Of a DNA stretch of 64,000 nt, positions 4,238-22,892 are shown one piece after another. The stretch lies in assembly GCA_021796115.1 (NCBI GenBank), contig JAJYOP010000007.1:10329-74328 (forward strand), given 5' to 3'. How positions within the stretch are numbered: position 1 is the first letter of the stretch; every line of letters begins with the position of its first letter. Origin of the DNA: a bacterium. GTDB taxonomy: Bacteria > Omnitrophota > Gorgyraeia > Duberdicusellales > 4484-171. The translations under genes were made by a program, and so were the position numbers. The notes beneath the pieces are model-generated. The model saw only the letters and a list, made by a program, of their open reading frames with translations. It did no database searches and had not been told where the DNA came from.

Positions 4238-4338
4238 AGATGTTATCGCGGATGCAAACGAATGGTTACGGATGTCACGGATTAATCCGTTGAATCCGCT
4301 ATAATCCGTATGAATCCGTGTTATAAAAAAATAAAGCT
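4238..4338. promoter_or_regulatory. hisD upstream region with phased CGGAT / ATCCG repeat array
   Basis: cGGATgcaaacg..aCGGATgtcaCGGATtaATCCGttgaATCCGctataATCCGtatgaATCCGtg; about 10-bp spacing, three direct then four inverted copies. Confidence 0.4.
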
Positions 4339-5562
4339 ATGAGAGTAGTAAGAAACATCGAAAGCCTGGAAAAAGCCTTGCTTAAAAAACGTAATTGCAA
4401 GGGTAATATTACCGAGAAGGTATCCAAAATAATTAAAGATATCGAAACGCGCGGGGATGACGCGCTTTTAGAATACACAAAGAAGTTCGACAAGGTAAAA
4501 TTACAGGCAAAAGAGTTAAGAGTGAGCGAATCAGAAATCAGCGCCGCATTCAATGAGCTCGATTCCTCAATAATATCGTCATTTAAACTCGCGATAGATA
4601 ATGTAACCAAATTCTATAAAAAAGAAGCGCCGCAATACATTAAGCGCATTAAAGAAAGTAACGGGAAGGTTTTGATAAACCGTTATGTGCCGCTTGAAAG
4701 AGTAGGGGTATATGTTCCGGCAGGAACCGCGCCGCTTATTTCAACCGTTTACATGGCGGTGATACCGGCTTTAGTTGCGGGAGTAAAAGAAATAGTCTTA
4801 GTTTCGCCGTTACGGAAAGATAAAACCGTAAACCCATTCATACTTTCTGTGGCTTCACTTTTAAAAATAAAAGAAATTTACCGCATTGGAGGAGCTCAGG
4901 CTATAGCCGCGCTATCCTTTGGTACAAAAACCATAAAGCGCGTAGATAAAATAATCGGTCCGGGCAACGAATTTGTTACCGAAGCTAAACGCCAGCTTTT
5001 CGGCAAAGTTGATATTGATATGCTTGCCGGGCCGTCAGAAGTCGTAATTATTGCTTCAAGAGGAGCAAACGTTGACTATATCGCTGCAGATTTAGAAGCC
5101 CAGATAGAACACCATAAAGGCATGGGGGTTGTTGTTACTAATTCAAAGAAAATCGCTAAAGAATTAAGTAAAAAGAAAATAAAAGGTTTTGTCGTAAGGG
5201 TAAAATATCTTGAAGAGGCCTGTGAGGTGGCGAATAGAATCGCGCCGGAACATCTTGAAATTTTTACTAAAAAGCCATCAGGTATTTTAAGGAAGATTAG
5301 AAATGCCGGGGCAATATTCCTGGGAGAAAATACGCCAACAGCGCTGGGTGATTATACTGCAGGGCCCAGCCATATTCTTCCTACAGGAGGAAGTTCGAGA
5401 TTCTTTTCGTCGCTTTCAACGAAAGAATTCCTTAAAGAAATACATATAATCAGTTATACAAAAAAAGCTCTTCAGGAAGAAGCGCAGGTTTTAGAAAAGA
5501 TCGCCTCGCTTGAAGGTATGACAAAACACATCGAAAGCGTTAAGAAAAGATTGATAAGCTGA
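4339..5562 (+). CDS. hisD: Histidinol dehydrogenase
   Basis: 407 aa; conserved HisD blocks ([50 protein letters not shown]). Confidence 0.9.
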
Positions 5563-5592
5563 TATTTTATAGATTTATAAGAGGAGCGGGCT

Positions 5593-6141
5593 ATGAAAAA
5601 AAGATCCATAGGTGTTACTATATTCGGCTGGTGGTGTATTATTTGCGGAGCATTAGGAATTTTTAGCTTCCCCATAATATTACTGATGGCAAAATTGCCT
5701 CCAAGCTATATGTATCCGAATAATATTTTTATAGGACAGTGCTCGAATATTTTTTATATCCTCTATTTATCTATAGCCACCATTGCGAATTTAGTTGCCG
5801 GAATAGGCCTTCTTAAATTAAAATCGTGGGCAAGGAAACTGGTAATCATTCTTTGCTTGGCAGGGATGGTGTACAGTATTTCCTTTTCCGTTAAAATGAT
5901 GATGAACTCTTCGCAATTCATAGAGGCATCATTGTCAGCCAACGCCCTGCCGAAAAATAGTTCGCCAGGAACAATAGAAGCGATGAAAGCATTTATGCAA
6001 GTTATTCTCGTTGGTTCCATGGTTGTAGGGATATCAATTGGCATAGGTTTCCTTATCTTTATTATCTGGTTTTTTAACCGCAAAAGCGTAGTAGAACAAT
6101 TCGAAGTCGATAATAAAGTCTCAGCCATGGAACAGAAATAA
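5593..6141 (+). CDS. Hypothetical polytopic membrane protein embedded in his operon
   Basis: 182 aa, 4-5 predicted hydrophobic helices, strong SD (agaggagcgggctATG); no recognisable domain. Confidence 0.5.
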   Translation: MKKRSIGVTIFGWWCIICGALGIFSFPIILLMAKLPPSYMYPNNIFIGQCSNIFYILYLSIATIANLVAGIGLLKLKSWARKLVIILCLAGMVYSISFSVKMMMNSSQFIEASLSANALPKNSSPGTIEAMKAFMQVILVGSMVVGISIGIGFLIFIIWFFNRKSVVEQFEVDNKVSAMEQK

Positions 6142-7469: not shown

Positions 7470-8182
7470 TAATTCCAGCAATTGATTTATACGATGGGAA
7501 AGTTGTCCGGTTTGTGAAAGGCTCACCGGCCCACTCAACAACCTACAGCGGCAATCCGGTTTCTATCGCGCGTAAATGGAAAGAAGAAGGCGCAAGAGTT
7601 CTTCATATTGTAGATCTTTCCGCGGCATTAGGAGAATCCGATAACGCAGATATCATTGAGCATATCATCAAGGAAATCGATATCGATATCGAAGTGGGTG
7701 GAGGAATCCGCGATGCCGGAAAAGCGTTACGTTTTAAAAGGGCCGGCGCCAAACGGATAATCGTGGGAACAAAAAGCTTAGACGATAATTTTTTAAAAGA
7801 ATTCTTAAGTGCTTTGGGTAAAAATGCCTTAGCCGTGAGCGTTGATACCAAAGATGGTTTTGTGGCAACCAGAGGTTGGCAGGAAAAGAGTAAACTTAAA
7901 CCAATAGAGTTTATAGAGAAAATTATTGCTCTCGGCATAAGGTGGATAATTTATACCGATATATCCAAAGACGGAACCCTTGAAGGATTAAATTTTAAGG
8001 CTTTAAAAGAGCTTTCCGTTTTTAAGGGTGTAAATTTCATCGCTTCCGGCGGCGTCTCTGGTCTCTCTGACCTTAAAAAAGTCAAAGAAGAGCTTCCCTT
8101 TATCTGGGGTATAATCTCCGGCAAAGCCCTTTATGACAATAAGTTAACTTTTGCCGAAGCAAATTCATTCCTGGAGAAATAA
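7463..8182 (+). CDS. hisA: ProFAR isomerase (HisA)
   Basis: MLIIPAIDLYDGKVVR... (HisA-type N-terminus), GGGIRD, ASGGVS motifs; start overlaps hisH stop. Confidence 0.8.
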   Translation: MLIIPAIDLYDGKVVRFVKGSPAHSTTYSGNPVSIARKWKEEGARVLHIVDLSAALGESDNADIIEHIIKEIDIDIEVGGGIRDAGKALRFKRAGAKRIIVGTKSLDDNFLKEFLSALGKNALAVSVDTKDGFVATRGWQEKSKLKPIEFIEKIIALGIRWIIYTDISKDGTLEGLNFKALKELSVFKGVNFIASGGVSGLSDLKKVKEELPFIWGIISGKALYDNKLTFAEANSFLEK

Positions 8183-8200
8183 CATAATAATTATGTAACC

Positions 8201-9633
8201 CCAAAGTGATAATGTCCCTTTTGGGCAAAGTAAAAATGTCCCCTTTTACAATTGCTATAATATCTCTCGAAGGAGGGTATTATGGCAAAGAGAGGCATTA
8301 TCACAATGAAGCAGGAGGAACTAAAACGGCTCTACATCGTCCGTCAGGTACTGGATAAAAAGCTAAAACAGGTAGAAGCAGCGGATAAGCTTGCTTTGAG
8401 CTACCGTCAGACTAAACGAATAACTAAAAGAATAAAAGAAGAAGGCGATAAGGGAATAGTTCATAAATCAAGAGGTAAGCCCTCCCATAACCGTATAGCT
8501 CTTAAGATAAAGAATAAAGTAATCAATCTCTGCAGAGATAAATATAAAGGCTTTGGCCCTACCCTAGCTACAGAAAAGCTCTTTGAAATCGAAAAGATAA
8601 GGCTTAGCGATGAAACTCTTCGGAACTGGCTCACCCAGGAAGGCCTTTGGCAGCGCAAGCGCAAACATAAAGAATACCGCGCCTGGCGCGAACGCAAGCA
8701 CCGTTTCGGAGAAATGATTCAGTGGGACGGCTCGCATCATGCCTGGCTTGAAGATAGAGGCCCCTGGTGCGTGTTGATCAGCCAGATTGACGATGCTACC
8801 AATAAGAAATCCGGACAGTTCTATCCTTACGAAGGAACTTTGCCTGCCTTCTCAAGCCTTAAACAATACATAAGACGCTACGGCATACCCCATAGCATCT
8901 ATTTAGACAGGCACACAACGTATAAATCAAACAAGAAGCTCTCAATTAAAGACGAACTGAATGACAGAGAATTCTTAAGCCGGTTCGAAAGAGCCGCCAA
9001 GGAATTAGGCATAACCATAATCCATGCCAATTCTGCTCCGGCTAAAGGAAGAATCGAGCGCTCTTTTAAAACCGACCAGGATCGCCTGGTCAAGGAAATG
9101 CGCCTTGCGAATATAGCTACCATTGAAGAAGCCAATAAGTTCCTAAAGAAATACTGGCCTAAACATAACAAAAGATTCAGCGTAAAATCCATAGAAGAAG
9201 GCAACCTGCACAGGCCGATACCCGAGGGCACAGACTTAGACGCTATCCTTTGCAAAAAGACCGAGCATGTTTTAAGAAACGATTTTACTGTCGGCCATAA
9301 CAAGAAGTTCTATCAGATACTGGATAAGGCGATAGGCAAAAGCGTAACCGTCGAAGAAAGAATAAATGGCGCCCTTTATATTACTTACAACGGCAGGAAG
9401 CTTAAATACAAACAGGTAAAGGCCAGGCCAAAACAGAATAAACCAAAGCTTAAACTAAAGAACAGAGTTAAACCGTCCATGGAACACCCCTGGAGGAAAC
9501 CTTACGGTAAAAAGACGACAGCTTACGGAAAAGCGCTCTATCAAAATAAAAGCTATACCGAGGAATTAGTATTATCAGAGGTCTAAAAAGAGGCCATTTT
9601 AACTTTGGTAAAAAAGGGACATTTTAACTTTGG
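8201..9633. mobile_element. Insertion sequence (~1.43 kb) with ~22-bp terminal inverted repeats carrying a single transposase gene
   Basis: IRL ccaaagtgataatgtccctttt (8201-8222) vs rc of 9612-9633 ccaaagttaaaatgtccctttt (about 20/22 identical); additional subterminal ATGTCCC/GGGACAT copies at 8236-8243 and 9661-9668; single DDE transposase ORF inside. No clear target-site duplication seen. Confidence 0.6.
8282..9586 (+). CDS. IS481/ISNCY-family DDE transposase (N-terminal HTH + rve integrase core)
   Basis: 434 aa; HTH-like N-terminus, MIQWDGSHHAWLEDRGPWCVLISQIDDATNK..., YLDRHTTYKS ..., IHANSAPAKGRIERSFKT (D, D, E catalytic region of rve fold); flanked by inverted repeats. Confidence 0.8.
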   Translation: MAKRGIITMKQEELKRLYIVRQVLDKKLKQVEAADKLALSYRQTKRITKRIKEEGDKGIVHKSRGKPSHNRIALKIKNKVINLCRDKYKGFGPTLATEKLFEIEKIRLSDETLRNWLTQEGLWQRKRKHKEYRAWRERKHRFGEMIQWDGSHHAWLEDRGPWCVLISQIDDATNKKSGQFYPYEGTLPAFSSLKQYIRRYGIPHSIYLDRHTTYKSNKKLSIKDELNDREFLSRFERAAKELGITIIHANSAPAKGRIERSFKTDQDRLVKEMRLANIATIEEANKFLKKYWPKHNKRFSVKSIEEGNLHRPIPEGTDLDAILCKKTEHVLRNDFTVGHNKKFYQILDKAIGKSVTVEERINGALYITYNGRKLKYKQVKARPKQNKPKLKLKNRVKPSMEHPWRKPYGKKTTAYGKALYQNKSYTEELVLSEV

Positions 9634-9641
9634 CTTGACAA

Positions 9642-9766
9642 CTCGCATTATAGTTGTTGACATGTCCCAAAATAAGCGTAATATAAAAATACTTTGATAA
9701 AAGAAGATTAGCATTCTTGAGCCGTAAGGTTGGGAGGAACTAACCTTACGGTTTTTTTGTTTATAT
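9642..9766 (+). promoter_or_regulatory. Sigma70-like promoter (TTGACA-16-TAATAT) followed by a hairpin+U-tract, in the leader of cspA at the IS right flank
   Basis: ttgacatgtcccaaaataagcgtaatat; then ccgtaaggttgggaggaactaaccttacgg + ttttttt at about 9722-9766, within ~35 nt of the cspA SD. Confidence 0.4.
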
Positions 9767-9796
9767 GGGGCGTAAATCCATTAGGGGGGGGTAAAG

Positions 9797-10003
9797 ATGC
9801 ATACAGGTAAGATTAAAAAATTAATAAAAGACCGCGGTTTTGGTTTTATCAGCGATACGGACGGCAACGAAGTATTTTTTCATAAGAACAGTTTAATTGA
9901 TGTCCAATTTGAAGCCTTGGCCGAAAACCAGGCAGTGGAATTCGAAACGAAAAAAACCCCAAAAGGATCAAACGCTATCAACATTCGTATAGCAAATGAA
10001 TAA
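9797..10003 (+). CDS. cspA: Cold-shock protein (CspA family)
   Basis: 68 aa, GKIKKLIKDRGFGFI...VFFH (RNP1/RNP2 motifs of cold-shock domain); SD ggggggg upstream. Confidence 0.9.
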   Translation: MHTGKIKKLIKDRGFGFISDTDGNEVFFHKNSLIDVQFEALAENQAVEFETKKTPKGSNAINIRIANE

Positions 10004-10751
10004 GGATGGCATTCTAGCCGTAAGTAATTCCTGGTTAATCTTCAAACAGTCGATACAGTCGGTGATAATATGGATTGTAGGGGCTGCTTTGATTGCTATC
10101 TTGTTCTTGGCGATGGCGTTATTGTCTATATTGCTCTATCCTTTTGACCGTAAGCGTAAAATTGTTCACGCTCAGTGTTTTTGGTGGGCAGATGCAGTTA
10201 TTGCGTTGAATCCTTATTGGAACGTACAAATAAAAGGCCTTGATAATATAGATCATAAAAAGACATATGTCATTGTGTCTAACCATCAGAGTTTGGCTGA
10301 TATTGTATTAATGTATAAGACCAAGATGCAATTTAAGTGGGTAGCCAAAGATAGCCTTTTCAAAATTCCGGTGCTGGGGTGGAATATGTTACTTGCGCGC
10401 CATATCCGGATCGAGCGCGGTGATTTCTCAAGCATCAAGAAAGCTTACACGGAAGCTGGGGAATGGTTACGTAAAAAAGTATCGGTGGTATTCTTTCCCG
10501 AAGGGACCAGAAGCGTAAAAGAGAAAATAGGAGAGTTTCAAAATGGCGCATTTAAACTTGCGATCAAAGAAAAAGTTCCCATTTTGCCGGTGTTGATCAA
10601 GGGGACCAGAGACGCCATTCCCAAAGGAAGCTGGAGATTTACGACTAAAATTTCCTGTGTTATAGAAGTGCTTGCGCCAATAGAAACCCATAATTTGCTC
10701 TCCAGCGATTTTACTAAATTGCGCGATTCTGTTAAAGCTCAATTATCTTGA
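9996..10751 (+). CDS. plsC: 1-acyl-sn-glycerol-3-phosphate acyltransferase (lysophospholipid acyltransferase family)
   Basis: N-terminal TM, VSNHQSLADIV (HX4D motif), FFPEGTRS motif. Confidence 0.8.
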   Translation: MNKDGILAVSNSWLIFKQSIQSVIIWIVGAALIAILFLAMALLSILLYPFDRKRKIVHAQCFWWADAVIALNPYWNVQIKGLDNIDHKKTYVIVSNHQSLADIVLMYKTKMQFKWVAKDSLFKIPVLGWNMLLARHIRIERGDFSSIKKAYTEAGEWLRKKVSVVFFPEGTRSVKEKIGEFQNGAFKLAIKEKVPILPVLIKGTRDAIPKGSWRFTTKISCVIEVLAPIETHNLLSSDFTKLRDSVKAQLS

Positions 10752-10996
10752 TAAGGAAACAATAGGATATTAAAAACTGCAGTAACTAACCGTTTGATTA
10801 ATTTTCTTAAATATGGTTTTTTCAAATATAATGTCTATCTTAAAATGAATAGACACGCTTATCTGTTAGCAATCCAGAGAGTTAGGTGATTTATAGACAA
10901 AAAATAACGGACAAATTGGACAAATTTCGCGAGGAAATCACCTCTCTAAACCGCTAATTTCTTGATAATCACCACGTTTAGCCCTATAATACATAC

Positions 10997-11793: not shown

Positions 11794-12342
11794 ATGGGGG
11801 TAAACATGGCAAAACAGATTTTAAAAAGCAAAATTTGGATAATTGCAATACTCGTATTTGCATTTTTACTATCTTCTTCTAACGCCTTTGCTTGGGGGCA
11901 CGGTGGCAGATATTACTGGCATGGCGGAGGATGGCACAGGGATGGTTGGTTCTGGGGCGGAGTAGCAGTGAGCGCTTTAACTGTAGGAGCTGTAGTTGCT
12001 TCTCTCCCGCCTCATTATAAGGTTGTCTATACCGGTAACGCCCCTTATTATTACGATGGCACTTATTATTACCAAAGCTACCCAAATGGTTACGTTATCA
12101 TGGCGCCACCAGTGATTCAACCGGCGCCAGTCGTTGTAGTGCAGCCCCAAACTGCAACTGTTCCTGTTGCTCAGCTGCAAGCTCATAATCCAAATACAGT
12201 AGTCGTTAACGTTCCTAATCAAAATGGTACCTACACCGCGGTTACGCTCACAAAACATAAAACTGGTTATCTAGGGCCGCAAGGTGAGTATTACGAAGGG
12301 CATCCTACGGTTAAACAATTAAGAGTTTTGTACGGTAAATAA
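11794..12342 (+). CDS. Secreted hypothetical protein with G/W/H/Y-rich N-terminal region and conserved C-terminal ~45-aa module
   Basis: Signal peptide (IWIIAILVFAFLLSSSNAFA); WGHGGRYYWHGGGWHRDGWFWGG; C-terminal VNVPNQNGTYTAVTL...YLGPQGEYYEGHPTVKQLRVLYGK shared with next ORF. Confidence 0.5.
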   Translation: MGVNMAKQILKSKIWIIAILVFAFLLSSSNAFAWGHGGRYYWHGGGWHRDGWFWGGVAVSALTVGAVVASLPPHYKVVYTGNAPYYYDGTYYYQSYPNGYVIMAPPVIQPAPVVVVQPQTATVPVAQLQAHNPNTVVVNVPNQNGTYTAVTLTKHKTGYLGPQGEYYEGHPTVKQLRVLYGK

Positions 12343-12373: not shown

Positions 12374-12907
12374 ATGTTTAAAGTAAAAAGAAATACATTC
12401 TTAACAATTCTTAGTGTATCGACTTTTCTGTTGACCGGCTGTTCAGCGTTTGCTCCTTCGACGCAACAATTTAATGTCAACACAAACGCTTCCGATGCCC
12501 AGATATTCATCAATGGTTTTTACGTCGGCAGCGGAAGCGTAAAAACTATAGTTCCCCGTGATCACCCGCTTTATGTAACAGCTCAAAAGAACGGTTATCA
12601 TCCAATATCTATGTATGTTGGCACAAGATTAAGCAAATCCGGGACACTTGATTCTCTCGGAGCCATATTCATTCTGCCTATCATCGGTCTTGCATTTCCT
12701 GGTTCCCAAGAACTAGCAATGGAGACTGTTTCGTTAATGTTTCCGATAATACAAAAAAATGCGCTGGCCGTAAATGTTCCCAATTCCAACGGTAGCTATA
12801 CCGTTGTTAACTTGATACAGCGGGGCAATGGCTATATTGGGCCGCAGGGAGAATATTATGAAAGTTACCCAACAGTTGACCAATTAAAAGTTTTGTATGG
12901 TAAATAG
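12374..12907 (+). CDS. Lipoprotein with PEGA-like domain and the same conserved C-terminal module
   Basis: Lipobox LLTGC; PEGA-like SDAQIFINGFYVGSGSVKTIVPRDHPLYVTAQKNGYHP; C-terminal VNVPNSNGSYTVVNL...YIGPQGEYYESYPTVDQLKVLYGK. Confidence 0.5.
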   Translation: MFKVKRNTFLTILSVSTFLLTGCSAFAPSTQQFNVNTNASDAQIFINGFYVGSGSVKTIVPRDHPLYVTAQKNGYHPISMYVGTRLSKSGTLDSLGAIFILPIIGLAFPGSQELAMETVSLMFPIIQKNALAVNVPNSNGSYTVVNLIQRGNGYIGPQGEYYESYPTVDQLKVLYGK

Positions 12908-12935: not shown

Positions 12936-13463
12936 ATGAAATATGTTATTAGGTCTGTTGTTGCAATGTTTTGTGCGATGGCATTTTTTTCTCCATTAGC
13001 CTTTGCAGAAAAAAATTCTGGCGAATGCAATTTTACACCGAAATATGGCAGGACATTGTTTGATAAAGATCACGAAGGAATGTTTTTGCGCAAAGCGCAT
13101 TTAATTCTGATGAAAGCCAACGAATTGGGCCTAAGCGATGAACAAATACAAAAGATAAAGACGCTCGATTACAATCTTAAAAAAAGCTTCATAAAGGATG
13201 ATGCAGACATTAAATCATTGGCCTTGGATACAAGAGAGGCAACGGGCAAAGATGACATCGATCTCAATACTGTAAATTCACTCATCGACAAGAAATACGC
13301 CGCTAAAGCCGAAAAAGTTAAAGACGATATCCAGGCTTATGCAAATCTCAAAAAGATTTTGACTCTGGAACAGAATAAAAAATTAAAAGAGATGCGATTT
13401 GCAGGTATGAAGGAAAGATTTTGGCATGGAAGGGATTTGCATCAGAAACCGGTGGAAAAATAA
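12936..13463 (+). CDS. Periplasmic Spy/CpxP/ZraP-family (LTXXQ motif) protein
   Basis: Signal peptide ...SPLAFA; LSDEQIQKIKTL and LTLEQNKKLKEMRF (LTXXQ repeats); strong SD aaaaaggagg. Confidence 0.6.
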   Translation: MKYVIRSVVAMFCAMAFFSPLAFAEKNSGECNFTPKYGRTLFDKDHEGMFLRKAHLILMKANELGLSDEQIQKIKTLDYNLKKSFIKDDADIKSLALDTREATGKDDIDLNTVNSLIDKKYAAKAEKVKDDIQAYANLKKILTLEQNKKLKEMRFAGMKERFWHGRDLHQKPVEK

Positions 13464-13477
13464 CGAAGAGTATGATC

Positions 13478-13512
13478 CTGGAAGCTTTCGATAACTATAT
13501 TATCGGAGGCTT
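13478..13512 (+). terminator. Strong 14-bp stem-loop downstream of 12936..13463 (no U-tract)
   Basis: ggaagctttcgata actatat tatcggaggcttcc: 14 consecutive pairs including 2 G-U. Confidence 0.35.
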
Positions 13513-13643
13513 CCAATAAAGGATGAATAGGGATTTATAATAAGCTTTACTTACCAGTTAATTGCGTTATATTATGGTCAAATATATTAATGCAGTAAAG
13601 AAATTTTACCGGGCCGGCTTATCTAAGGTTAGCGAAAATACCA

Positions 13644-14207
13644 ATGCAAAATATTACCAGGGAAACTTTGATAAAAGCTCAAAAGAGGGATCTTAGGGCA
13701 TTTGAGGATATCTATAAAGAAAGTTCCGGGTTTGTTTACAACGTTGCCTTGCGTATTTTGAATAACAGGCAGGATTCTGAAGAGGTTGTACAGGAAGTTT
13801 TCTTAAGCATTTATCATAATCTTAAAAATTTCCGTTTTCATTCTTCTTTTAAAACCTGGGTTTATAGGATTACGGTAAATTGCGCAATCAATCATATTAA
13901 TAAAATGACTAAAGAAAAAAATAAATTAAAGGAATACAGTAATAGTTTGATTCAAACAACAGATAAATTTCAAGCACCGCAGATAGAAAAGATAGACACC
14001 GCACAGGAGGAAATGATCAATTCGCTCCTGGGAGCCCTCGATCCGGATCAAAGAACCTGCATAGTTTTAAGAAGCTTTGAGGGATTAAGTTACAAGGAGA
14101 TATCTGACACACTGAAAATCAATATCAATACCGTGCGTACCAGGTTAAAGAGAGCAAGAGAGAAATTATTGAACCTTAGAAAAGAGGTAGCAGGAAATGA
14201 ATTGTAA
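13644..14207 (+). CDS. RNA polymerase sigma-70 factor, ECF subfamily
   Basis: Region 2 (VQEVFLSIYHNLKNF...FKTWVYRITVNCAINHI) and region 4 HTH (GLSYKEISDTLKININTVRTRLKRAREKL). Confidence 0.85.
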   Translation: MQNITRETLIKAQKRDLRAFEDIYKESSGFVYNVALRILNNRQDSEEVVQEVFLSIYHNLKNFRFHSSFKTWVYRITVNCAINHINKMTKEKNKLKEYSNSLIQTTDKFQAPQIEKIDTAQEEMINSLLGALDPDQRTCIVLRSFEGLSYKEISDTLKININTVRTRLKRAREKLLNLRKEVAGNEL

Positions 14208-14694
14208 AAAAATCAAAGAATTAATTCTTACCGATTATATTGATAATCAAATGTGTGAGAAAGATAAAACATGTCTTGAATCCCATTTTGTTTATTGCAG
14301 GGAATGTAGAGATTTTTTTACGGCAGTAAAAAAGGCTGCAGTTGAGCCATTTATCAATACAAAACAGAATACGCCGCCGGAATTTATTTGGGAGCGGATA
14401 AAAGCGTCAATCTTCGCCGGCCAAAAAGAAAAAATAGGATTTTCCGCCAATTTAAAAGAAAGGTTAAAAGGTATTTTTTATATACCCAAACCAGTTTTAG
14501 TCATGTCGACGATAACGATAGCAACGCTCATTATTGTATTATTTGGTGTTTTGAAATTTGCCAATAAAGAAACTTCGCAAATTAGTATGGAAGAACAGGC
14601 TGAATATTCCATTTATTCGATGGAGGCGCCTGCTAGCACCATTTTGAATAATGATAATGGATTTGGGACTTTAGTTGAAAAATATTTTTTATAA
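14197..14694 (+). CDS. Anti-sigma factor (zinc-finger, single TM) co-translated with ECF sigma
   Basis: Overlaps sigma gene by 11 nt; HFVYCRECRDFF zf-HC2-like motif; TM segment VLVMSTITIATLIIVLFGVL. Confidence 0.6.
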   Translation: MNCKKIKELILTDYIDNQMCEKDKTCLESHFVYCRECRDFFTAVKKAAVEPFINTKQNTPPEFIWERIKASIFAGQKEKIGFSANLKERLKGIFYIPKPVLVMSTITIATLIIVLFGVLKFANKETSQISMEEQAEYSIYSMEAPASTILNNDNGFGTLVEKYFL

Positions 14695-14718
14695 TTTTAA
14701 GAGGAGGAAAAAATATCC

Positions 14719-15198
14719 ATGAGAAAGTTAAATTTGCTTGCTATTCTAACTATTGCCGCATTAAGCGTATCTGTGCCTGCAGGCTATGCGGCTTCGCCAA
14801 CGCCGGCGAATGGCCAGAAAAGTTCATTCTTGCAAAAAATGGATACAAAACGAAAACAGCTTTATGACGAGCTTGGTTTAAACAATGAACAAAGGAAATT
14901 ATTGGAAGCAAATAAAGATAAACATAGAGAGCAAACCAAAGCTTTGTTTTCACAAATCCATCAAAACATGGATTTGCTTCGTCAGGAGCTGGAGAAGAAC
15001 GAATTAGACATGCAGGCAATTTATAAAACTAATAATGAACTCAAAGAACTGCAAGCGCAAATGTTTGATAACAGGTTAGAGCGTATACTAGAGGTAAGAA
15101 AAATATTGACCCCCGAACAATTCAAAAAATTTGAAGAAAAAATGAATAAACGTATGTCACATTTTAAGAATAGGGACAAATATGGTAAAGATAGATAA
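14719..15198 (+). CDS. Periplasmic Spy/CpxP-family (LTXXQ) protein
   Basis: Signal peptide ending AGYA; LNNEQRKLLE and LTPEQFKKFEEKMNKRM motifs; strong SD agaggagg. Confidence 0.6.
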   Translation: MRKLNLLAILTIAALSVSVPAGYAASPTPANGQKSSFLQKMDTKRKQLYDELGLNNEQRKLLEANKDKHREQTKALFSQIHQNMDLLRQELEKNELDMQAIYKTNNELKELQAQMFDNRLERILEVRKILTPEQFKKFEEKMNKRMSHFKNRDKYGKDR

Positions 15199-16033: not shown

Positions 16034-16284
16034 GTAAAAATAAGTATATGTGTCCAGTGTGTGGTTTTAAAGGTTTAAAGGAAGAGCCTTACAATAGACA
16101 AAACCTGCCTTCACATGAAATCTGTCCTTGCTGCGGTTTTGAGTTTGGATTTGATGATGTCGCTAGCCAAGATGCATTTAGTCAAAACTGGATTAAAAAC
16201 GGTGCAAACTGGTTTATGCCGAAATTAAAACCCATTAATTGGAATCTAAATGAACAATTAAGTAATCTTGTTAAAAAAAATTAA
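16018..16284 (+). CDS. CPCC-family cysteine-rich small protein
   Basis: CPVCGF ... EICPCCGFEFGFDD: CPCC hallmark motif (Cys_rich_CPCC family). Confidence 0.55.
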   Translation: MAKAMSKNKYMCPVCGFKGLKEEPYNRQNLPSHEICPCCGFEFGFDDVASQDAFSQNWIKNGANWFMPKLKPINWNLNEQLSNLVKKN

Positions 16285-16516
16285 TATCGCCATATATTAT
16301 CGTTCATCCATTCGATAATGTATAAAACATACTTCTGTTGTCCACTTAGAATAGGTAGACAATTTGTATATGTTTATATAGTGAAGCCCCACGAACTAAA
16401 GTCCGTGGCTTCCTCCTGAGCAGAAATCCCAAAAAGGCATTTATCCCTCGGGTCATCCCATCTGGGATAGCCCGCGAGGAATGAATATAATTCCTGCTTC
16501 ATAAGGAGCAAATACG

Positions 16517-18748
16517 ATGAGAAGAATTCTTTTGTTTGTTTTGCCAATTCTTATTATTGTTTCTGCGGCGTTTACCATTTTTGGTATCTTCCAAGTTCGC
16601 TTTGAGGAGGAGAAACTGCTTGATGATCTGCAACGTAAAAGCCGAATCGTTGCCGAAAGTATGGATATCGTAGTGAAGCAGGTTCTGGAAAACAACGATC
16701 TCAAAACCGCCAATTATCTTGTTGAGAGGTTCGAGGCTCGTGAACGATTGCAGGGTTGTGTCATATATAACAAAGAAGGGCAGATAATTGCAATTACCAA
16801 ACGATTTACCGACTGGGAAAACAAACCGAAGCCATATATTCAAGAAGTATTAAATAATAAGACTGCCCGCGGCGAGCTGGAAAATTTTAAAGATTACACA
16901 GTATACAGTTATATTCTTCCTATAACCGATAGCAAAGAGCAGGTTTTGGGTTTAGTTGAAGTCATCAATGATACTTCCTATGTGTTTACGCGTATAGCCG
17001 ATCTTTGGAAACGCCTAAGTATTACCTTAATCGTTATAGTTATAACCATTATAATTATCTCAATTTTTCTACATAGGCAGATTTTCGTTTTACCGATAGA
17101 GCGCCTTACGGAATGGTTTAACCGTTTTCAGAAAGGTGAGACAGACGCAAAGCACCCCATAAAAGAAAAAGGGGAGTTAGGCAAACTGGCCAGCGAGGTT
17201 GAGCAGGTTGCCTTGAGTTTACGCGTCGCCCGCAGAACGGTTTCTGATGAAGCAGCCGCGCGTTTTAATAAAACAGAAATGTGGACAGAAGCCAAATTGC
17301 GGGATTTAATTCATGCAAAATTAGGCGACAACGCTTTTTTTGTAGTATCAAACCGCGAGCCTTACATGCATGTTGTCGATGAAGTTCTGGGTTTTGTAGA
17401 ATGTATCAGGCCGGCAAGCGGCGTTGTAACTGCGATACACCCTATTTTAGCTGCCTGCGGCGGGACGTGGATTGCCCACGGCGGGGGTAGCGCCGATAAG
17501 CAGTTCGTTAATTCTAAAGATAAACTGGGCGTTCCTCCGGAAAATAATCAATATATTTTAAAACGGATCTGGCTTTCTAAAGCGGAAGAACAAGGGTATT
17601 ATTACGGTTTTTCCAATGAAGGCCTCTGGCCGCTTTGCCATAATACCCATACACGGCCAATTTTTCGGGAAAGCGATTGGCAAACTTATAAAGAAGTGAA
17701 TCAGAAATTTGCCAAAAGCATTTTGGAAGAATTACCAAAGAAAAATCCTTTCGTGTTTATCCAGGATTATCACTTTACACTTTTGCCAAAAATGATTAAA
17801 GAAAAACGGCCGGAGGCAATTGTTGCATTATTCTGGCATATCCCCTGGCCTACGCCTGAATCGTTTTCGGTCTGTCCATACCAAGAAGAAATTTTAAGCG
17901 GCATGCTCGGCTGTGATTTGATAGGGTTTCACGTGCAGAGCCATTGCAATAATTTTCTTGATACCGCAAACCGGCTGCTTGAATCGCGCGTGGATACGGA
18001 AAAATTCAGCGTGGTGCGTTTCGGTAAAGAAACCTTCGTCAGGGCTTTTCCTATAAGCATAGATTATCATATTGGCAAAGAGCAAAAAATTGATCATGAA
18101 CAATTAGAGAAAATCAGGAAAGAATTAAAATTGGAAGGAAAGATAGTCGGCGTAGGCGTAGACAGGATAGATTATACAAAGGGCATCGCCGAAAAGCTGA
18201 TGGCCGTAGACAGGTTTTTAGAAAAATATCCGCAGTATAAAAACCACTTTATTTTTATACAGATAGGCGCGCCAAGCCGTACCCACATAAAACGCTACCA
18301 TGACTTAATTGCCGAAATTGATGAGCTGGTTGATAGGATCAATTGGAAACATCAGGATGGGGAATGGAAGCCCATAGTATATCTTAAACGGCACTTTTCT
18401 CCGGAAGAAATCATACCTTATTATGCGCTTTCCGATCTTTGTATCGTGAGCTCTCTTCATGATGGCATGAATCTCGTTGCCAAAGAGTATGTCGCCAATA
18501 AGAAAGATTTGTCGGGAATTTTGATTTTAAGCCGTTTCACTGGCGCAGCGAGGGAATTAACGGACGCTATCCAGATAAATCCCTATTCCATAGAAGAATT
18601 TTCCGACAGCATAAAATTTGCAGTTGAAATGCCTCTTGAAGAAAAAAAGCGGCGCATGGAAAACATGCAAAATATTATTTCAGAAAATAATATTTATCGC
18701 TGGGCTGGAAGCATTATCACTGAGTTAACTGCTTTAAAAAAGATTTAA
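16517..18748 (+). CDS. otsA: Membrane sensor-HAMP domain fused to trehalose-6-phosphate synthase (GT20, OtsA)
   Basis: aa 5-27 TM, ~140-aa extracytoplasmic segment, second TM (ITLIVIVITIIIISIFL), HAMP-like (PIERLTEWFNRFQKGETDAKHPIKEKGELGKLASEVEQVALSL), then canonical OtsA blocks (FFVVSNREPY, HDYHFTLLP, VGVDRIDYTKGI, GMNLVAKEY). Confidence 0.8.
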   Translation: MRRILLFVLPILIIVSAAFTIFGIFQVRFEEEKLLDDLQRKSRIVAESMDIVVKQVLENNDLKTANYLVERFEARERLQGCVIYNKEGQIIAITKRFTDWENKPKPYIQEVLNNKTARGELENFKDYTVYSYILPITDSKEQVLGLVEVINDTSYVFTRIADLWKRLSITLIVIVITIIIISIFLHRQIFVLPIERLTEWFNRFQKGETDAKHPIKEKGELGKLASEVEQVALSLRVARRTVSDEAAARFNKTEMWTEAKLRDLIHAKLGDNAFFVVSNREPYMHVVDEVLGFVECIRPASGVVTAIHPILAACGGTWIAHGGGSADKQFVNSKDKLGVPPENNQYILKRIWLSKAEEQGYYYGFSNEGLWPLCHNTHTRPIFRESDWQTYKEVNQKFAKSILEELPKKNPFVFIQDYHFTLLPKMIKEKRPEAIVALFWHIPWPTPESFSVCPYQEEILSGMLGCDLIGFHVQSHCNNFLDTANRLLESRVDTEKFSVVRFGKETFVRAFPISIDYHIGKEQKIDHEQLEKIRKELKLEGKIVGVGVDRIDYTKGIAEKLMAVDRFLEKYPQYKNHFIFIQIGAPSRTHIKRYHDLIAEIDELVDRINWKHQDGEWKPIVYLKRHFSPEEIIPYYALSDLCIVSSLHDGMNLVAKEYVANKKDLSGILILSRFTGAARELTDAIQINPYSIEEFSDSIKFAVEMPLEEKKRRMENMQNIISENNIYRWAGSIITELTALKKI

Positions 18749-18765
18749 TATTACATTTATAAACC

Positions 18766-19569
18766 ATGAAGCATTTTCTTGCAATTTGCGATAAACTTAA
18801 AAAAGTTTTAGCTGGTAAAACTATATTTCTTTTTTTGGATTACGATGGTACGTTGGCTCCTCTTGTTGACAGACCGGGGAGGGCCTTTCTTACTAAAAAA
18901 ACCAAGAGGTTGCTTATAAATTTAGCGAAGAATCGTAATTGTAAAGTAGCTATTGTCAGCGGCCGCAGGATAAAAGACATAAAAAAAAGGGTAAGAATTA
19001 AGAAAATTATTTACGTTGGAAACCATGGCCTTGAAATTTACGGCCCGAAAATAAAATTTGAGGCCAAGATTCATCCTAAATTCCCGGCTACACTTAGTTC
19101 AATAAAAGAAGAACTTAACAAAAAACTTTCTAAGGTTGACGGTGCATTTGTCGAGGATAAAGGGCTGACGTTGAGCCTTCACTATCGCTGTGTTAACGAA
19201 AGAGATATTCCCGATGTAAAAACTATTTTTCATGAAACCGTAAGCACGCATCTGGCCGGCGATAAAATAAAGGTAAAAGCCGGTAAGATGGTATTTGAGG
19301 TAAGGCCGCCGATAACTTGGGATAAGGGCAAGGCTATACTCTGGCTTTTAGCCAGGCAGCAATTTGCTAATAAAAATAGAAAAGCATTGCCTTTTTATTT
19401 TGGAGACGATACCACCGATGAAGATGCCTTTCGTGCTTTAAGAAAAAGAGGTATTACTGTGTTTGTGGGTTCGTCTGGAGAGTCTCATGCCGAATATTAT
19501 CTTAAATCTACGCAGGAAGTTGCAAGAGCGTTAAAACAAATACTAAAGTATTGCAGCACTATTGAATAA
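18766..19569 (+). CDS. otsB: Trehalose-6-phosphate phosphatase (HAD family)
   Basis: FLDYDGTLAP (HAD motif I), VSGR, YFGDDTTDEDAF (motif IV). Confidence 0.85.
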   Translation: MKHFLAICDKLKKVLAGKTIFLFLDYDGTLAPLVDRPGRAFLTKKTKRLLINLAKNRNCKVAIVSGRRIKDIKKRVRIKKIIYVGNHGLEIYGPKIKFEAKIHPKFPATLSSIKEELNKKLSKVDGAFVEDKGLTLSLHYRCVNERDIPDVKTIFHETVSTHLAGDKIKVKAGKMVFEVRPPITWDKGKAILWLLARQQFANKNRKALPFYFGDDTTDEDAFRALRKRGITVFVGSSGESHAEYYLKSTQEVARALKQILKYCSTIE

Positions 19570-20234
19570 TGAAAGAGTTAATAAAAGCGAAAGAACCGTT
19601 TCAATTTCATACCAGGCTTCATTTGTCAGGATTAACCGGATTGCGCGCTTCTAATCTGTCGCAACTTCTGGAACTTATTAAAAGCGTTCCCGGCTCTTGT
19701 ATTTATCACCATACGCACAGATTTTTGCAGCAGCACCAATATTTGTCCCCGGAGCCTCCCAATGATTTTGCTTATTGGGTAACCGAAGTTTTAGGAGAAG
19801 ATACGTTGGGTGAAAAATTAGCAAGTATTGATACTATTCAATTCGTAACCATCCATAGTTTGCGGGAAGAAATAGTCAGTGTCATTGAAGAGCATTTAGA
19901 AAATAATAAATTATCAAAATTAAAATTTGCCAGCGAAGGGGAAGAATTTCATTTTATCAAATCAGTCAGTTTTATCCTGCCTACCAAATATACCGCATAC
20001 GATTTAAAAGAATTTTTGGATATTTTAGAAAAAATAAGCATTGATTCGATATACTTTCATGTTTTTGAGGCGCGTTTAAGGCTTGAGCGACACACAAATG
20101 ATTTTTCAAACTGGATAGAGACTTCTCTTGGGAATAAGGAACTGGCGCGGCGCATTGCGCATTTAGATCCGTATACCCGCACTTTGGAAGGTTTGCGCAA
20201 TAAGCTTATTGAGATGATTAAGAAAGCGATATAG
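19569..20234 (+). CDS. Conserved hypothetical protein translationally coupled to otsB (TAATG overlap)
   Basis: 221 aa, no recognisable motif; start overlaps otsB stop; sits between otsB and treT. Confidence 0.5.
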   Translation: MKELIKAKEPFQFHTRLHLSGLTGLRASNLSQLLELIKSVPGSCIYHHTHRFLQQHQYLSPEPPNDFAYWVTEVLGEDTLGEKLASIDTIQFVTIHSLREEIVSVIEEHLENNKLSKLKFASEGEEFHFIKSVSFILPTKYTAYDLKEFLDILEKISIDSIYFHVFEARLRLERHTNDFSNWIETSLGNKELARRIAHLDPYTRTLEGLRNKLIEMIKKAI

Positions 20235-20325: not shown

Positions 20326-21537
20326 ATGATTGAACTCCAGGATTATACCCCTATTGTCGGTCAAAATGTCATTGATGATTTAAGATTGCTTGCCGAAAAG
20401 TTAGAAGGTAAAGCCATCCAGAATATTAATTCTACTGCCGTTGGCGGCGGCGTCGCAGAAATCCTTAACCGCTTAATCCCGCTTTTACAGGAATTAAACG
20501 TAGATGCGCATTGGGATGTTATTAAGGGCGGTGAGCAGTTCTTTGAAGTAACAAAAAAGTTTCACAACGCCCTTCATGGTTTAAATGAAGAAATACGGTC
20601 TCATGATTTCGATATTTTTATGGAGGCAAGCAGCAATAATATTGCACAGACTAATATTTATGGCGACATAGTTTTTGTCCATGATCCGCAGCCGATAGCC
20701 TTAATAAAAAAGAAAGGAAGCAATAAATGGATTTGGCGTTGTCATATCGATGTGTCTAATCCTAACCGGCGGGTATGGGGGTTTTTAAGAGATTTCGTAA
20801 TAAAGTATGACGCTGCTGTTTTTTCTTCGCCAAGTTTTTCGCAGAGATTGCCGATACGGCAATTTCTTATTTCGCCATCTATCGATCCATTGAGCGATAA
20901 GAATAAAGAGCTCCCCGAAGATGTGATAAACGGCGTATTAAAAAAATACGGTATTACAAAAGACAAACCTATTATTGCGCAAATTTCCCGGTTTGATCGG
21001 TTAAAAGACCCTCTTGGCGTGATTGCTGCCTACAAGCAGGTAAAGAAATACAATGATTGCCAGTTAATTCTGGCCGGTGGCGGAGCCAAAGATGACCCCG
21101 AAGGGATAAAAGTTTTTGAGGAAGTTAAAGAAAAAGCAAAAGAAGATAAGGATATCCATGCTTTGCTTCTGCCGCAAAACGATTTAGAAGTTAATGCCTT
21201 GCAAAGGGCGGCAACTATTATTATCCAGAAATCATTAAAAGAGGGATTTGGCTTAACCGTGACGGAGGCTCTTTGGAAAGCAAAACCCGTTGTGGCATCT
21301 GCCGTAGGCGGCATACCTTTACAGATAAAACATAAATATTCCGGATTACTGTGCCATTCGGTTGACGGAGCGGCATTCGCCCTAAAACAGCTTTTAAACA
21401 GCCCTGACTATGCCAAAAAATTAGGCGATAATGGCAGAGAGCATGTGCGCAATAACTTTTTATTGACGCGGCACCTTAAAGAGTATATGCTTTTATTTCT
21501 TACCTTGTATAACGACAAAGATATGGTTTATCTATAA
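20326..21537 (+). CDS. treT: Trehalose glycosyltransferring synthase TreT (GT4)
   Basis: Near-colinear similarity to archaeal TreT blocks as recalled from memory (not database-checked): NSTAVGGGVAEIL, VHDPQPIAL, WIWRCHIDVSNPN, SPSIDPLSDKN, PIIAQISRFDRLKD, DDPEG, KEGFGLTVTEALWKAKPVVASAVGGIPLQI (EX7E). ORF opens at 20269 but homology begins at MIELQDY (20326). Confidence 0.8.
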   Translation: MIELQDYTPIVGQNVIDDLRLLAEKLEGKAIQNINSTAVGGGVAEILNRLIPLLQELNVDAHWDVIKGGEQFFEVTKKFHNALHGLNEEIRSHDFDIFMEASSNNIAQTNIYGDIVFVHDPQPIALIKKKGSNKWIWRCHIDVSNPNRRVWGFLRDFVIKYDAAVFSSPSFSQRLPIRQFLISPSIDPLSDKNKELPEDVINGVLKKYGITKDKPIIAQISRFDRLKDPLGVIAAYKQVKKYNDCQLILAGGGAKDDPEGIKVFEEVKEKAKEDKDIHALLLPQNDLEVNALQRAATIIIQKSLKEGFGLTVTEALWKAKPVVASAVGGIPLQIKHKYSGLLCHSVDGAAFALKQLLNSPDYAKKLGDNGREHVRNNFLLTRHLKEYMLLFLTLYNDKDMVYL

Positions 21538-21548
21538 AACTTGTAAAA

Positions 21549-22892
21549 ATGCGCAGAAGATTAAAAGAAGAAAGTATTTTATTTATCAGCGTAATTAAAT
21601 GGGTTATTCTTGCCGCCATCACAGGAATAATCGTGGGGTTATCCACGACAATATTTCTGAAAATATTAAATTGGAGCATAGCATTTACTGAAAAATATCC
21701 CTATTACTTTTTGTTGCTTCCAATCGCGCTATTTCTTAGCATATTAATAATTAAATATCTCGCTCCGGATGCCGAAGGGCACGGAACAGAAAAGGTGATA
21801 GAAGCCATTCACAGGCATGCCGGCAAGATAAAGGCTATCGTTGTTCCGGTAAAACTGGTAGCAACTATAATTACTGTGGCATTGGGCGGTTCGGTCGGTA
21901 AGGAAGGGCCTTGTGCTCAAATCGGCGGCGGACTTTCCTCGATATTTTCCGACATTCTTAAGTTTGGCGACAAGGATCGGAAAAAATTGGTAATTTGCGG
22001 TATAAGCGCCGGTTTTGCTTCCGTATTCGGGACGCCTATCGCCGGTTCTATCTTTGGCGTAGAAGTTTTATTTATAGGCGCTATTTTGTACGATGTTTTG
22101 CTCCCTTCTTTTATTGCCGGAATTATCAGCTATCACGTCTCATCATCTTTGGGCATAACCTACTTTTACCATCCCATAACTTTTGTTCCGGTTTTCAGCA
22201 ATCAATTTTTTATCAAAGTTATATTCGCCGGTATTTTCTTTGGATTATGTTCAGTCCTGTTAATTGAAATATTAGAACGCACGCAAAAATTAGCCAAGCG
22301 ATTAAGGTGGTGGGAGCCTCTAAAAGGCCTTGCCGGCGGTTCTTTCCTGGTTGGATTGACTTTTATATCTTCAAAAGAATATCTGGGCCTTGGTTTAAAT
22401 ACGATACAAAATACCTTAAGCGGCATCAAAACAGCATGGTATGCATTTATTTTAAAAATTATTTACACAAGCACAACCCTCGGGTTTGGCGGTAGCGGAG
22501 GAATCGTAACTCCTATTTTCTTCATTGGAGCGACTTCCGGAAGCTTATTTGCTTCTATTTTCGGATTAAACCCGGCTACTTTTGCGGCAATAGGTTTGGT
22601 CAGTGTTCTTGCCGGTTCAGCCAATACGCCGATTGCGGCAAGCATTATGGCGATGGAATTGTTCGGAACAAATATTGCGCCATACGCAACCGTTGCCTGC
22701 GTCGTAAGTTTCCTTATTACCGGACACAGAAGCGTTTATCCATCGCAGGTGCTTGAAGTAAAGAAATCCGAATCAATCAATGTCGAAGTCGGCAAAGAGA
22801 TAGAAAATGTGCTTGCTGAGGTAAGCCCCCGCAAAAAAAGCCTTACCGGAGCGATTCTTAAAATAACAAAAATATTTCGTAGGGTAAAATAA
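21549..22892 (+). CDS. ClC-family chloride channel / H+-Cl- antiporter
   Basis: GSVGKEGP selectivity-filter motif, GTPIAGSIFGVEVL, ~10 TM helices. Confidence 0.85.
   Translation: MRRRLKEESILFISVIKWVILAAITGIIVGLSTTIFLKILNWSIAFTEKYPYYFLLLPIALFLSILIIKYLAPDAEGHGTEKVIEAIHRHAGKIKAIVVPVKLVATIITVALGGSVGKEGPCAQIGGGLSSIFSDILKFGDKDRKKLVICGISAGFASVFGTPIAGSIFGVEVLFIGAILYDVLLPSFIAGIISYHVSSSLGITYFYHPITFVPVFSNQFFIKVIFAGIFFGLCSVLLIEILERTQKLAKRLRWWEPLKGLAGGSFLVGLTFISSKEYLGLGLNTIQNTLSGIKTAWYAFILKIIYTSTTLGFGGSGGIVTPIFFIGATSGSLFASIFGLNPATFAAIGLVSVLAGSANTPIAASIMAMELFGTNIAPYATVACVVSFLITGHRSVYPSQVLEVKKSESINVEVGKEIENVLAEVSPRKKSLTGAILKITKIFRRVK

Follow-up and report, generated by a model that had tools for sequence, protein, structure and literature searches.

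Background

Can a metabolic enzyme be wired directly to a sensor on the outside of the cell? The question is raised by one gene in a stretch of 64,000 nucleotides (nt), hereafter the window, from a bacterium of the phylum Omnitrophota (GenBank assembly GCA_021796115.1, contig JAJYOP010000007.1, positions 10,329 to 74,328 of the forward strand). The gene encodes a trehalose-6-phosphate synthase (OtsA) of glycosyltransferase family 20 (GT20) that is fused, at its N-terminus, to a transmembrane (TM) sensor and a HAMP domain. Control of compatible-solute synthesis in bacteria is mostly known to be transcriptional, or to be exerted by ions and metabolites that act directly on soluble enzymes. The initial annotation of the window took the fusion for a one-component receptor whose output is the synthesis of trehalose-6-phosphate. 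This is also the reading best supported by the present analysis, on the strength of a sensor module of the kinase and cyclase type, a near-invariant HAMP signature and spacing, and intact catalytic residues. We give a probability of roughly 60% to the whole mechanism proposed here, that of a membrane-integrated one-component receptor enzyme serving osmotic or salt adaptation. Positions without a locus name are those of the window.

Results

Layout of the fused protein

The gene and the segments of its product are as follows.

16517..18748, + strand: sensor-fused trehalose-6-phosphate synthase gene, 743 amino acids (aa) plus stop (open reading frame (ORF), Pfam, NCBIfam, full-length homologues)
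16526..16594, + strand: TM helix 1 (TM1), residues ~4-26, hydropathy 2.9, within model helix 2-48
16595..17008, + strand: WalK-like sCache/PAS-like sensor domain, residues 27-164 (Foldseek, family profile, sCache_3_2 in relatives)
17009..17077, + strand: TM helix 2 (TM2), residues ~165-187, hydropathy 3.2, within the continuous model helix 154-205
17078..17224, + strand: HAMP domain, residues 188-236, with first amphipathic helix (AS1) 193-205, connector 206-219 and second amphipathic helix (AS2) 220-236
17225..17335, + strand: conserved helical linker, residues 237-273, model helices 220-252 and 258-270
17336..18745, + strand: GT20 (OtsA) catalytic domain, residues 274-743, Pfam PF00982

The reading frame is uninterrupted from 16517 to 18748 and opens with an ATG, 8 nt after a Shine-Dalgarno sequence, AGGAG. 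Sensor input and enzymatic output are thus carried on one polypeptide, in the order TM1, extracytoplasmic sCache/PAS domain, TM2, HAMP, helical linker and GT20. Kyte-Doolittle hydropathy, calculated with a 19-residue window, exceeds 1.6 in exactly two peaks, at residues ~1-30 (maximum 2.9) and ~160-195 (maximum 3.2). The N-terminal MRR is compatible with an N-in topology. On this topology, the 138-aa segment of residues 27-164 is exposed outside, and HAMP and the enzyme share the cytoplasm with the sugar-nucleotide substrates. In an AlphaFold model of residues 1-272 (predicted local distance difference test, pLDDT, 84.7), a helix formed by TM1 and a stalk (2-48) is followed by two short helices and a five-strand sheet (79-152). 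One unbroken helix, 154-205, then joins a second stalk, TM2 and AS1 of the HAMP domain, and leads through a loop (206-219) into a helix comprising AS2 and its extension (220-252) and a last helix (258-270). Among the NCBIfam models, that of the WalK kinase N-terminus matches residues 4-245 (E = 1.1e-12), and DgcN/YfiN is matched weakly (E = 9.7e-4).

Most of the layout given by the initial annotation is confirmed by these data, and TM and HAMP segments were both found. The two TM helices that it had placed in the N-terminal part correspond to the two hydropathy peaks and to modelled helices, and the extracytoplasmic segment that it had put at ~140 aa measures 138 aa and has a WalK-like fold. 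The HAMP-like region is upheld by kinase homology, signature residues and the model, despite a Pfam score below the cut-off. The GT20 domain is complete, as had been stated, with the Pfam match at 274-738 covering profile positions 3-472 of 473. The claim that HAMP is joined directly to GT20 was not upheld, since a conserved helical linker of 37 residues (237-273) lies between them.

Distribution of the fusion

A survey of OtsA homologues for this architecture, which the initial annotation had proposed, recovered it from hundreds of independent assemblies, in two clades. Searched with the full-length protein, the NCBI, JGI, ENA and Logan assemblies yielded over 120 clusters, 737-748 aa long and 72-84% identical to it. 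Their named members are almost all Candidatus Omnitrophota, with single cases labelled Spirochaetes, and fragments of the fused protein carry the labels Ratteibacteria, Syntrophales and Nitrospirota. The second clade likewise comprises more than 120 clusters, of ~755 aa and 64-78% identical to one another, and its named members are Acidobacteriota (Terriglobia, Blastocatellia, Acidiferrales). The closest relative found, at locus L007, is 84% identical to the window protein. Judged from its nearest relatives, the window probably belongs to an Omnitrophota genome of 39.8% G+C. A scan of metagenome contigs gave at least 322 relatives, of which 80 loci were kept. The fusion is therefore real and present in hundreds of uncultured bacteria. 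Automated annotation at JGI has already noticed it and labels some members; a literature search on HAMP or transmembrane sensors together with OtsA or Glyco_transf_20 found no publication that describes a sensor-OtsA fusion.

The extracytoplasmic sensor domain

Between the two TM helices, the model of residues 1-272 shows a long N-terminal helix and a five-strand antiparallel sheet. When this model was compared with solved structures using Foldseek, a full-length WalK model ranked first (E = 9.5e-13, 268 columns). The extracellular domain of WalK (5is1/4ywz/7dud) was matched with target-normalised TM-scores of 0.70-0.76 and E-values of 2e-7 to 1e-6, and CitA, DcuS and KinD gave further matches to the sensor region. 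A profile of the N-terminal family, searched against PDB sequences, also found the WalK extracellular domain 5is1 (E = 0.016). Among 67 members of the fused family, 51 match the Pfam model sCache_3_2 at E<=0.01, the best of them at 1.1e-6. Invariant positions of the domain include Q79, G80, Y84, P135, G145, D152 and W164. The conserved residues R75, R77, R96, Y130, Y132, E148 and D152 would be compatible with a putative binding pocket, a suggestion drawn from conservation.

The same module is found in front of other outputs. Against 1.84 billion representative proteins, the N-terminal profile gave 1835 matches at E<=1e-3, 343 of them at E<=1e-10. Thirty-five long representatives with the sensor module included 20 with GT20, five HisKA/HATPase kinases and two GGDEF cyclases. 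In three of the five kinases, Pfam places a strong HAMP match (E = 1e-13 to 1e-15) at residues 186-237, where HAMP also lies in the fused OtsA. One histidine kinase, P0288 (Pfam HAMP at residues 188-236, E = 1.3e-15), was aligned with the family profile by hhalign at a probability of 98.5% over 242 ungapped columns, from TM1 through HAMP. The N-terminus of the fused OtsA is therefore a genuine signalling module of the TM-sCache-TM-HAMP input type.

The HAMP domain and a spacer of fixed length

Directly after TM2 lies a helix-connector-helix element of ~50 residues with the Pro, Gly and Glu signature of HAMP domains. Pfam recognises a HAMP domain in 21 of the 67 members of the family at E<=0.01, with 1.5e-6 as the best value, and the N-terminal profile finds, weakly, the HAMP domain of Af1503 among PDB sequences (E = 0.05-0.06). 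In an alignment of 249 sequences, the HAMP residues P193 (246/249), W200 (249/249), G207 (233/249) and E227 (249/249) are kept, as are W256 (249/249), T257 (248/249) and L261 (249/249) of the linker.

The distance between HAMP and the enzyme is also conserved. Of 248 full-length fused proteins, 246 have a distance of exactly 54 residues from E227 in AS2 to E281 in the VSNREP motif of GT20 (Omnitrophota 119/119, Acidobacteriota 114/115, others 13/14), and within the same alignment the HAMP connector loop differs in length by up to 6 residues. Fused proteins of Omnitrophota and Acidobacteriota are only 13-37% identical in their N-terminal regions and 51-55% identical in GT20. Within Omnitrophota, identity to the window protein is 80-90% in HAMP, 70-92% in the linker, 76-86% in the enzyme and 56-81% in the outside domain; HAMP and linker thus equal the enzyme in conservation. 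Across phyla the spacer has a single length, to which a passive tether would not be constrained, and these alignments argue that HAMP is mechanically coupled to the GT-B N-domain, at its first strand, rather than loosely tethered. The fixed spacing is the strongest indirect argument for such coupling.

The GT20 catalytic domain

Pfam Glyco_transf_20 (PF00982) matches residues 274-738 with E = 4.8e-123 and 411.8 bits, against a cut-off of 32.5. The closest solved structure is the trehalose-phosphate synthase entry 5jij (E = 5.8e-84). As reference we used the Escherichia coli OtsA sequence, which was checked as 100% identical to PDB 2wtx/1uqt; the GT20 domain is 34% identical to it over 427 columns. 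All active-site and substrate-binding residues that were checked are kept: G22, Y76, W85, D130, H154, R262, K267, R300, D361 and E369 of E. coli OtsA correspond to G302, Y362, W371, D417, H441, R550, K555, R588, D649 and E657 of the fused protein, and the VSNR motif stands at 277-280. Judged by these residues, the enzyme domain looks active. Its score against the NCBIfam OtsA equivalog model TIGR02400 (429.4 bits) is below the cut-off of 564.85, which would mark it as a member of a divergent OtsA subfamily.

The trehalose cassette and its surroundings

Downstream of the fused gene, the window contains four further genes on the same strand.

18766..19569, + strand: otsB, trehalose-6-phosphate phosphatase (PF02358, E = 1.2e-47; TIGR00685, 162.7 bits, cut-off 68.05)
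19569..20234, + strand: DUF5752 protein (PF19027, E = 7.3e-72), overlapping otsB by one base
20326..21537, + strand: TreT-like trehalose synthase of glycosyltransferase family 4 (GT4) (PF21269, E = 9.8e-54; NF041139, E = 8.9e-113, below cut-off)
21549..22892, + strand: ClC-type chloride channel/antiporter (PF00654, E = 4.2e-76), 11 nt after TreT

The gap between otsA and otsB is 17 nt. For TreT, the mechanically called ORF starts at GTG 20269 (422 aa); a start at ATG 20326, which gives 403 aa as in homologues, appears more likely. The order OtsA-OtsB-DUF5752-TreT recurs in 56 of 89 loci, most of the others being cut by contig ends, and two Acidobacteriota loci have the same four-gene cassette. 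A ClC gene likewise follows TreT in L007. MscS genes are adjacent to the cassette in 10 loci and lie between otsA and otsB in the following four, unlike in the window.

L002 10267-11313: MscS between otsA and otsB
L003 7804-8850: MscS between otsA and otsB
L007 3421-4467: MscS between otsA and otsB
L090 2458-3504: MscS between otsA and otsB

In locus L004, an MscL gene is found 6.5 kb upstream. In Omnitrophota and Acidobacteriota alike, DUF5752 is always the gene that separates otsB from the TreT-like gene, for example at these positions.

L004 11040-11714: DUF5752
L091 9182-9832: DUF5752
L092 9173-9829: DUF5752

A literature search on DUF5752 found no relevant paper. We regard the protein as a candidate partner or regulator in trehalose synthesis.

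Several other features of these neighbourhoods were recorded. In the Acidobacteriota locus L092, the cassette is directly preceded (3927-5920) by a gene resembling mannosylglycerate synthase (PF21969) and one resembling a channel (PF05552, weak), so that genes of two compatible-solute pathways stand side by side. The Omnitrophota contig of L004 has a group I intron match (RF00028, 62.2 bits) on the - strand at 13803-14042, ~900 nt past the cassette. In the window, a cluster resembling envelope-stress genes (12936-15198) extends from 3.6 kb to 1.3 kb upstream of otsA. It encodes two LTXXQ proteins, the first Spy/CpxP-like and the second of the LTXXQ/Metal_resist type, together with an extracytoplasmic function (ECF) sigma factor and an anti-sigma factor with a zf-HC2 domain. 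The adjacent ORFs 11794-12342 and 12374-12907, whose products look secreted or lipoprotein-like, share a near-identical C-terminal motif, GY[LI]GPQGEYYE..PTV.QL[RK]VLYGK, which suggests a paralogous pair.

nhaA-I riboswitches in relatives

The nhaA-I motif (Rfam RF03057) was found upstream of the fused otsA in all of the first nine relatives examined, with 40-61 bits against a cut-off of 37. A covariance model built from seven of these matches was then applied to the 76 loci with at least 300 nt of upstream sequence, and detected the motif upstream in 59, in 31 of them within 39-51 nt of the start codon. In the loci whose sequence was read, nhaA-I is followed by a terminator-like stem and a T run. 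Positions are given below.

L002 7769-7825: nhaA-I upstream of fused otsA
L001 1268-1324: nhaA-I upstream of fused otsA
L004 7906-7954: nhaA-I upstream of fused otsA
L006 7879-7933: nhaA-I upstream of fused otsA
L007 645-701: nhaA-I upstream of fused otsA
L008 658-712: nhaA-I upstream of fused otsA
59 of 76 loci among L010-L089: nhaA-I upstream of fused otsA
L023 4780-4835 and 4900-4959: tandem nhaA-I copies
L057 776-843 and 919-979: tandem nhaA-I copies
L017 9933-9992: downstream nhaA-I, with P-II-like ORF 10059-10349
L055 9987-10050 and 10351-10410: downstream nhaA-I, with P-II-like ORF 10473-10769

The downstream copies belong to a set of 17 loci that have a second nhaA-I ~4.0-6.0 kb downstream of the otsA start. 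In both loci checked, this copy follows TreT and precedes a P-II-like protein of ~96 aa (PF00543, E = 1.1e-10), a small signal protein that may therefore be under cation-riboswitch control.

White et al. (2022) described nhaA-I as a Li+ riboswitch with rare Na+-sensing variants of the terminator type, which were reported only in Deltaproteobacteria, and mentioned that trehalose-6-phosphate synthase genes occasionally lie behind the motif, possibly as a response to Na+ or osmotic conditions (PMC9646797). No nhaA-I match was obtained in the window at the gathering score, in 16200-16600 at E<=10, or in the window with the purpose-built model and filters off, and none was obtained in two Acidobacteriota loci.

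Several relatives have small hydrophobic ORFs in the interval from the riboswitch to otsA, for example at L008 712-864 (internal ATG at about 762; MDKSMRFVFIVFGVCILAGIICVIFVLSQGIK) and at about 7860-7990 in L002; the window has none. The corresponding interval of L007 holds a 92-aa ORF (822-1100) with no Pfam match. On the Spirochaetes-labelled contig L006, which has FlaA genes nearby, a fused otsA of 76% identity (8001-10214) occurs without otsB, DUF5752 or TreT and is still preceded by the nhaA-I motif. Riboswitch and gene seem here to have been transferred horizontally as a unit.

The leader of the window gene

The fused gene of the window has a different upstream region.

16383..16516, + strand: GC-rich 5' leader, with hairpin 1 at 16383-16412, a hairpin core at 16446-16479 and a closing helix

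The initial annotation had called the upstream leader highly structured, and single-sequence folding prediction agrees: the fold of 16383-16508 has a z-score of -3.4 to -3.55, and 1 of 200 shuffled sequences was as stable. The same segment has 51% G+C, against 29% just upstream. In the closing helix, present in both the minimum free energy and the centroid structure, CUCCU (16413-16417) pairs with the Shine-Dalgarno AGGAG (16504-16508); as modelled, the leader may mask the ribosome-binding site. It matched no Rfam family at the gathering score or at E<=10, and contains no intrinsic terminator-like site. Neither a second copy in the window nor a homologue in 89 related loci was detected (blastn, nhmmer), nor one in the nearest relatives L007 and L090, and the 17 loci without an upstream riboswitch have no alternative leader in common. 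A GAACT-N16-CCTGA element in the leader was considered as an ECF-sigma promoter and rejected, as it occurs at chance frequency (2 found, 1.0 expected). A link through such a promoter to the sigma gene 2.3 kb upstream was also rejected, no similar motif being seen before the sigma gene.

Discussion

Proposed mechanism and the points against it

We propose that the fused protein is a membrane-integrated, probably dimeric receptor enzyme. Its sCache domain, which resembles that of WalK and faces outward from the cytoplasmic membrane, would perceive an envelope or extracellular cue, and the signal would pass from TM2 to HAMP and on to the rigid linker of fixed length. It would then change the activity of the cytoplasmic OtsA domain, which is expected to make trehalose-6-phosphate from NDP-glucose and glucose-6-phosphate; the co-transcribed OtsB would then remove the phosphate to give trehalose. 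An outside cue could in this manner directly switch on trehalose production, as the domain order suggests. Adaptation to osmotic or salt conditions is the most likely role of the cassette. Its transcription would additionally be gated, in most relatives, by the nhaA-I (Li+/Na+) riboswitch and its terminator; the window has no such riboswitch and has an unrelated structured leader, which may mask the ribosome-binding site. The step that would be new is HAMP signalling to an undescribed class of output, namely direct transmembrane control of a GT-B glycosyltransferase through the 54-residue spacer, and to this step we give an even chance. The architecture and its spread are solid, while the regulation is still hypothetical.

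Several observations weigh against the mechanism. In the window protein, the Pfam HAMP match (PF00672, residues 191-236) has E = 1.7e-3 and 19.1 bits, below the 25-bit cut-off, and the Pfam dCache_3 match (residues 35-161) has E = 2.8e-4 and 21 bits, below its cut-off of 25.7. In the full-length AlphaFold model, confidence is low at residues 240-253, exactly on the path that a signal would need to take, and the model, being of a monomer, represents neither a HAMP four-helix bundle nor the dimer geometry of the enzyme. No paper was found that describes a HAMP-to-GT-B output, and transmission of a signal to a GT-B fold is thus without demonstrated precedent. The sub-cut-off score of the OtsA equivalog model makes substrate specificity uncertain. 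Finally, the osmotic role is read from the gene neighbourhood and from a riboswitch that the window lacks.

Alternative explanations

A first alternative is that the N-terminal module is no more than a membrane anchor or dimerisation scaffold. OtsA would then be constitutive and receive no signal; it would be placed, for example, next to channels or to the membranes that trehalose protects, and all regulation would act on transcription, by way of the riboswitch in relatives and of the leader in the window. The HAMP and Cache scores of the window protein, the low model confidence in the linker and the absence of a precedent for HAMP control of a GT-B enzyme all fit such an anchor, as does the strong transcriptional control by nhaA-I in relatives. 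It would not, however, need a conserved outside domain of 138 aa with invariant pocket-like residues, or a HAMP signature, and the 54-residue spacing was kept across two phyla despite the divergence of the N-terminus. Moreover, the same module drives kinases and cyclases. We consider the anchor unlikely, though it deserves to be taken seriously.

If the domain is an enzyme, its product might be a compound other than trehalose-6-phosphate, such as glucosylglycerol-phosphate or another sugar-phosphate. The OtsA equivalog models fall below their cut-offs, and the GgpS model TIGR02398 does match (E = 2.3e-93). It reaches 313.5 bits, however, against 429-482 bits for the OtsA models, the residues with which E. 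coli OtsA binds glucose-6-phosphate and the nucleotide sugar are kept, and a TreT-like gene is found further on in the cassette. Since the OtsA models outscore GgpS and the adjoining trehalose-phosphatase is above its equivalog cut-off, trehalose-6-phosphate is the most likely product by homology and gene context, and a different one is improbable.

Inactive GT20 domains are known from eukaryotes, in the regulatory TPS-like subunits of yeast and the class II TPS proteins of plants. This precedent is the sole reason to consider for the GT20 domain a regulatory or binding role without catalysis, which would make the whole protein a sensor of sugar-phosphate rather than an enzyme. With all checked catalytic residues in place, and with this being the only GT20 gene of the cassette and adjoining otsB, we regard such a function as very improbable. 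An assembly or frameshift artefact that joined a sensor gene to otsA is rejected, at a negligible probability, as the frame is uninterrupted and the layout is common to hundreds of independent assemblies from four data sources, with identical length and junction.

Significance

If the one-component receptor reading is correct, an outside sensor wired to the first enzyme of trehalose synthesis would link environment to metabolism quickly and without a kinase, and HAMP domains would gain a metabolic GT-B enzyme among their known outputs. With hundreds of clusters at 90% identity in two phyla, the family is a large one. Both phyla are abundant in sediments, groundwater and soils. The fixed spacer offers a clean experimental handle on the coupling hypothesis. 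The pairing with a Li+/Na+ riboswitch in relatives would lead to a two-layer model of the salt response, and extends the published note on trehalose-6-phosphate synthase genes behind nhaA-I.

Comparison with known systems

The operons of the relatives resemble the known nhaA-I-controlled genes in having the motif and a terminator-like stem directly upstream. They differ in that the published account has no sensor fusion (PMC9646797) and that the terminator-type loci found here resemble Omnitrophota; the window itself has no motif. A second comparison is the trehalose operon of Thermoproteus tenax, which encodes the synthase TPSP, an activating glycosyltransferase and a mechanosensitive channel, and for which its authors propose a stress-response module with post-translational activation (PMC3634074). 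The cassette described here likewise combines a synthase with a second, TreT-like glycosyltransferase and a channel (ClC, and MscS in relatives). In T. tenax, the synthase is fused to a phosphatase and activated by binding of the glycosyltransferase, and there is no membrane sensor or HAMP domain. For mycobacterial OtsA, allosteric regulation by metabolites is reported (PMC6879718), and not regulation by a fused receptor.

Soluble OtsA enzymes (E. coli 1GZ5/1UQU/2WTX; 5JIJ) have the same GT20 fold and active-site residues as the fused protein, but are without any TM, Cache or HAMP segment. Kinases of the WalK/YycG type share the topology and fold of the N-terminal 250 residues (TM, sCache/PAS, TM, HAMP); their output is PAS-DHp-CA, whereas here it is GT20, with no phosphotransfer and no response regulator. 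The fused protein can thus be read as a membrane receptor of the WalK or YfiN type in which OtsA has replaced the output domain. Parallels in overall design are membrane enzymes coupled to HAMP domains, such as the diguanylate cyclases of the YfiN/DgcN type and the HAMP-containing class III adenylyl cyclases. Like the fused OtsA, they unite a periplasmic sensor, two TM helices, HAMP and an enzymatic output on one polypeptide. The catalytic domains of the cyclases are dimeric, depend on dimer geometry for their activity and make second messengers, whereas the output here is a GT-B enzyme that would make the precursor of a compatible solute.

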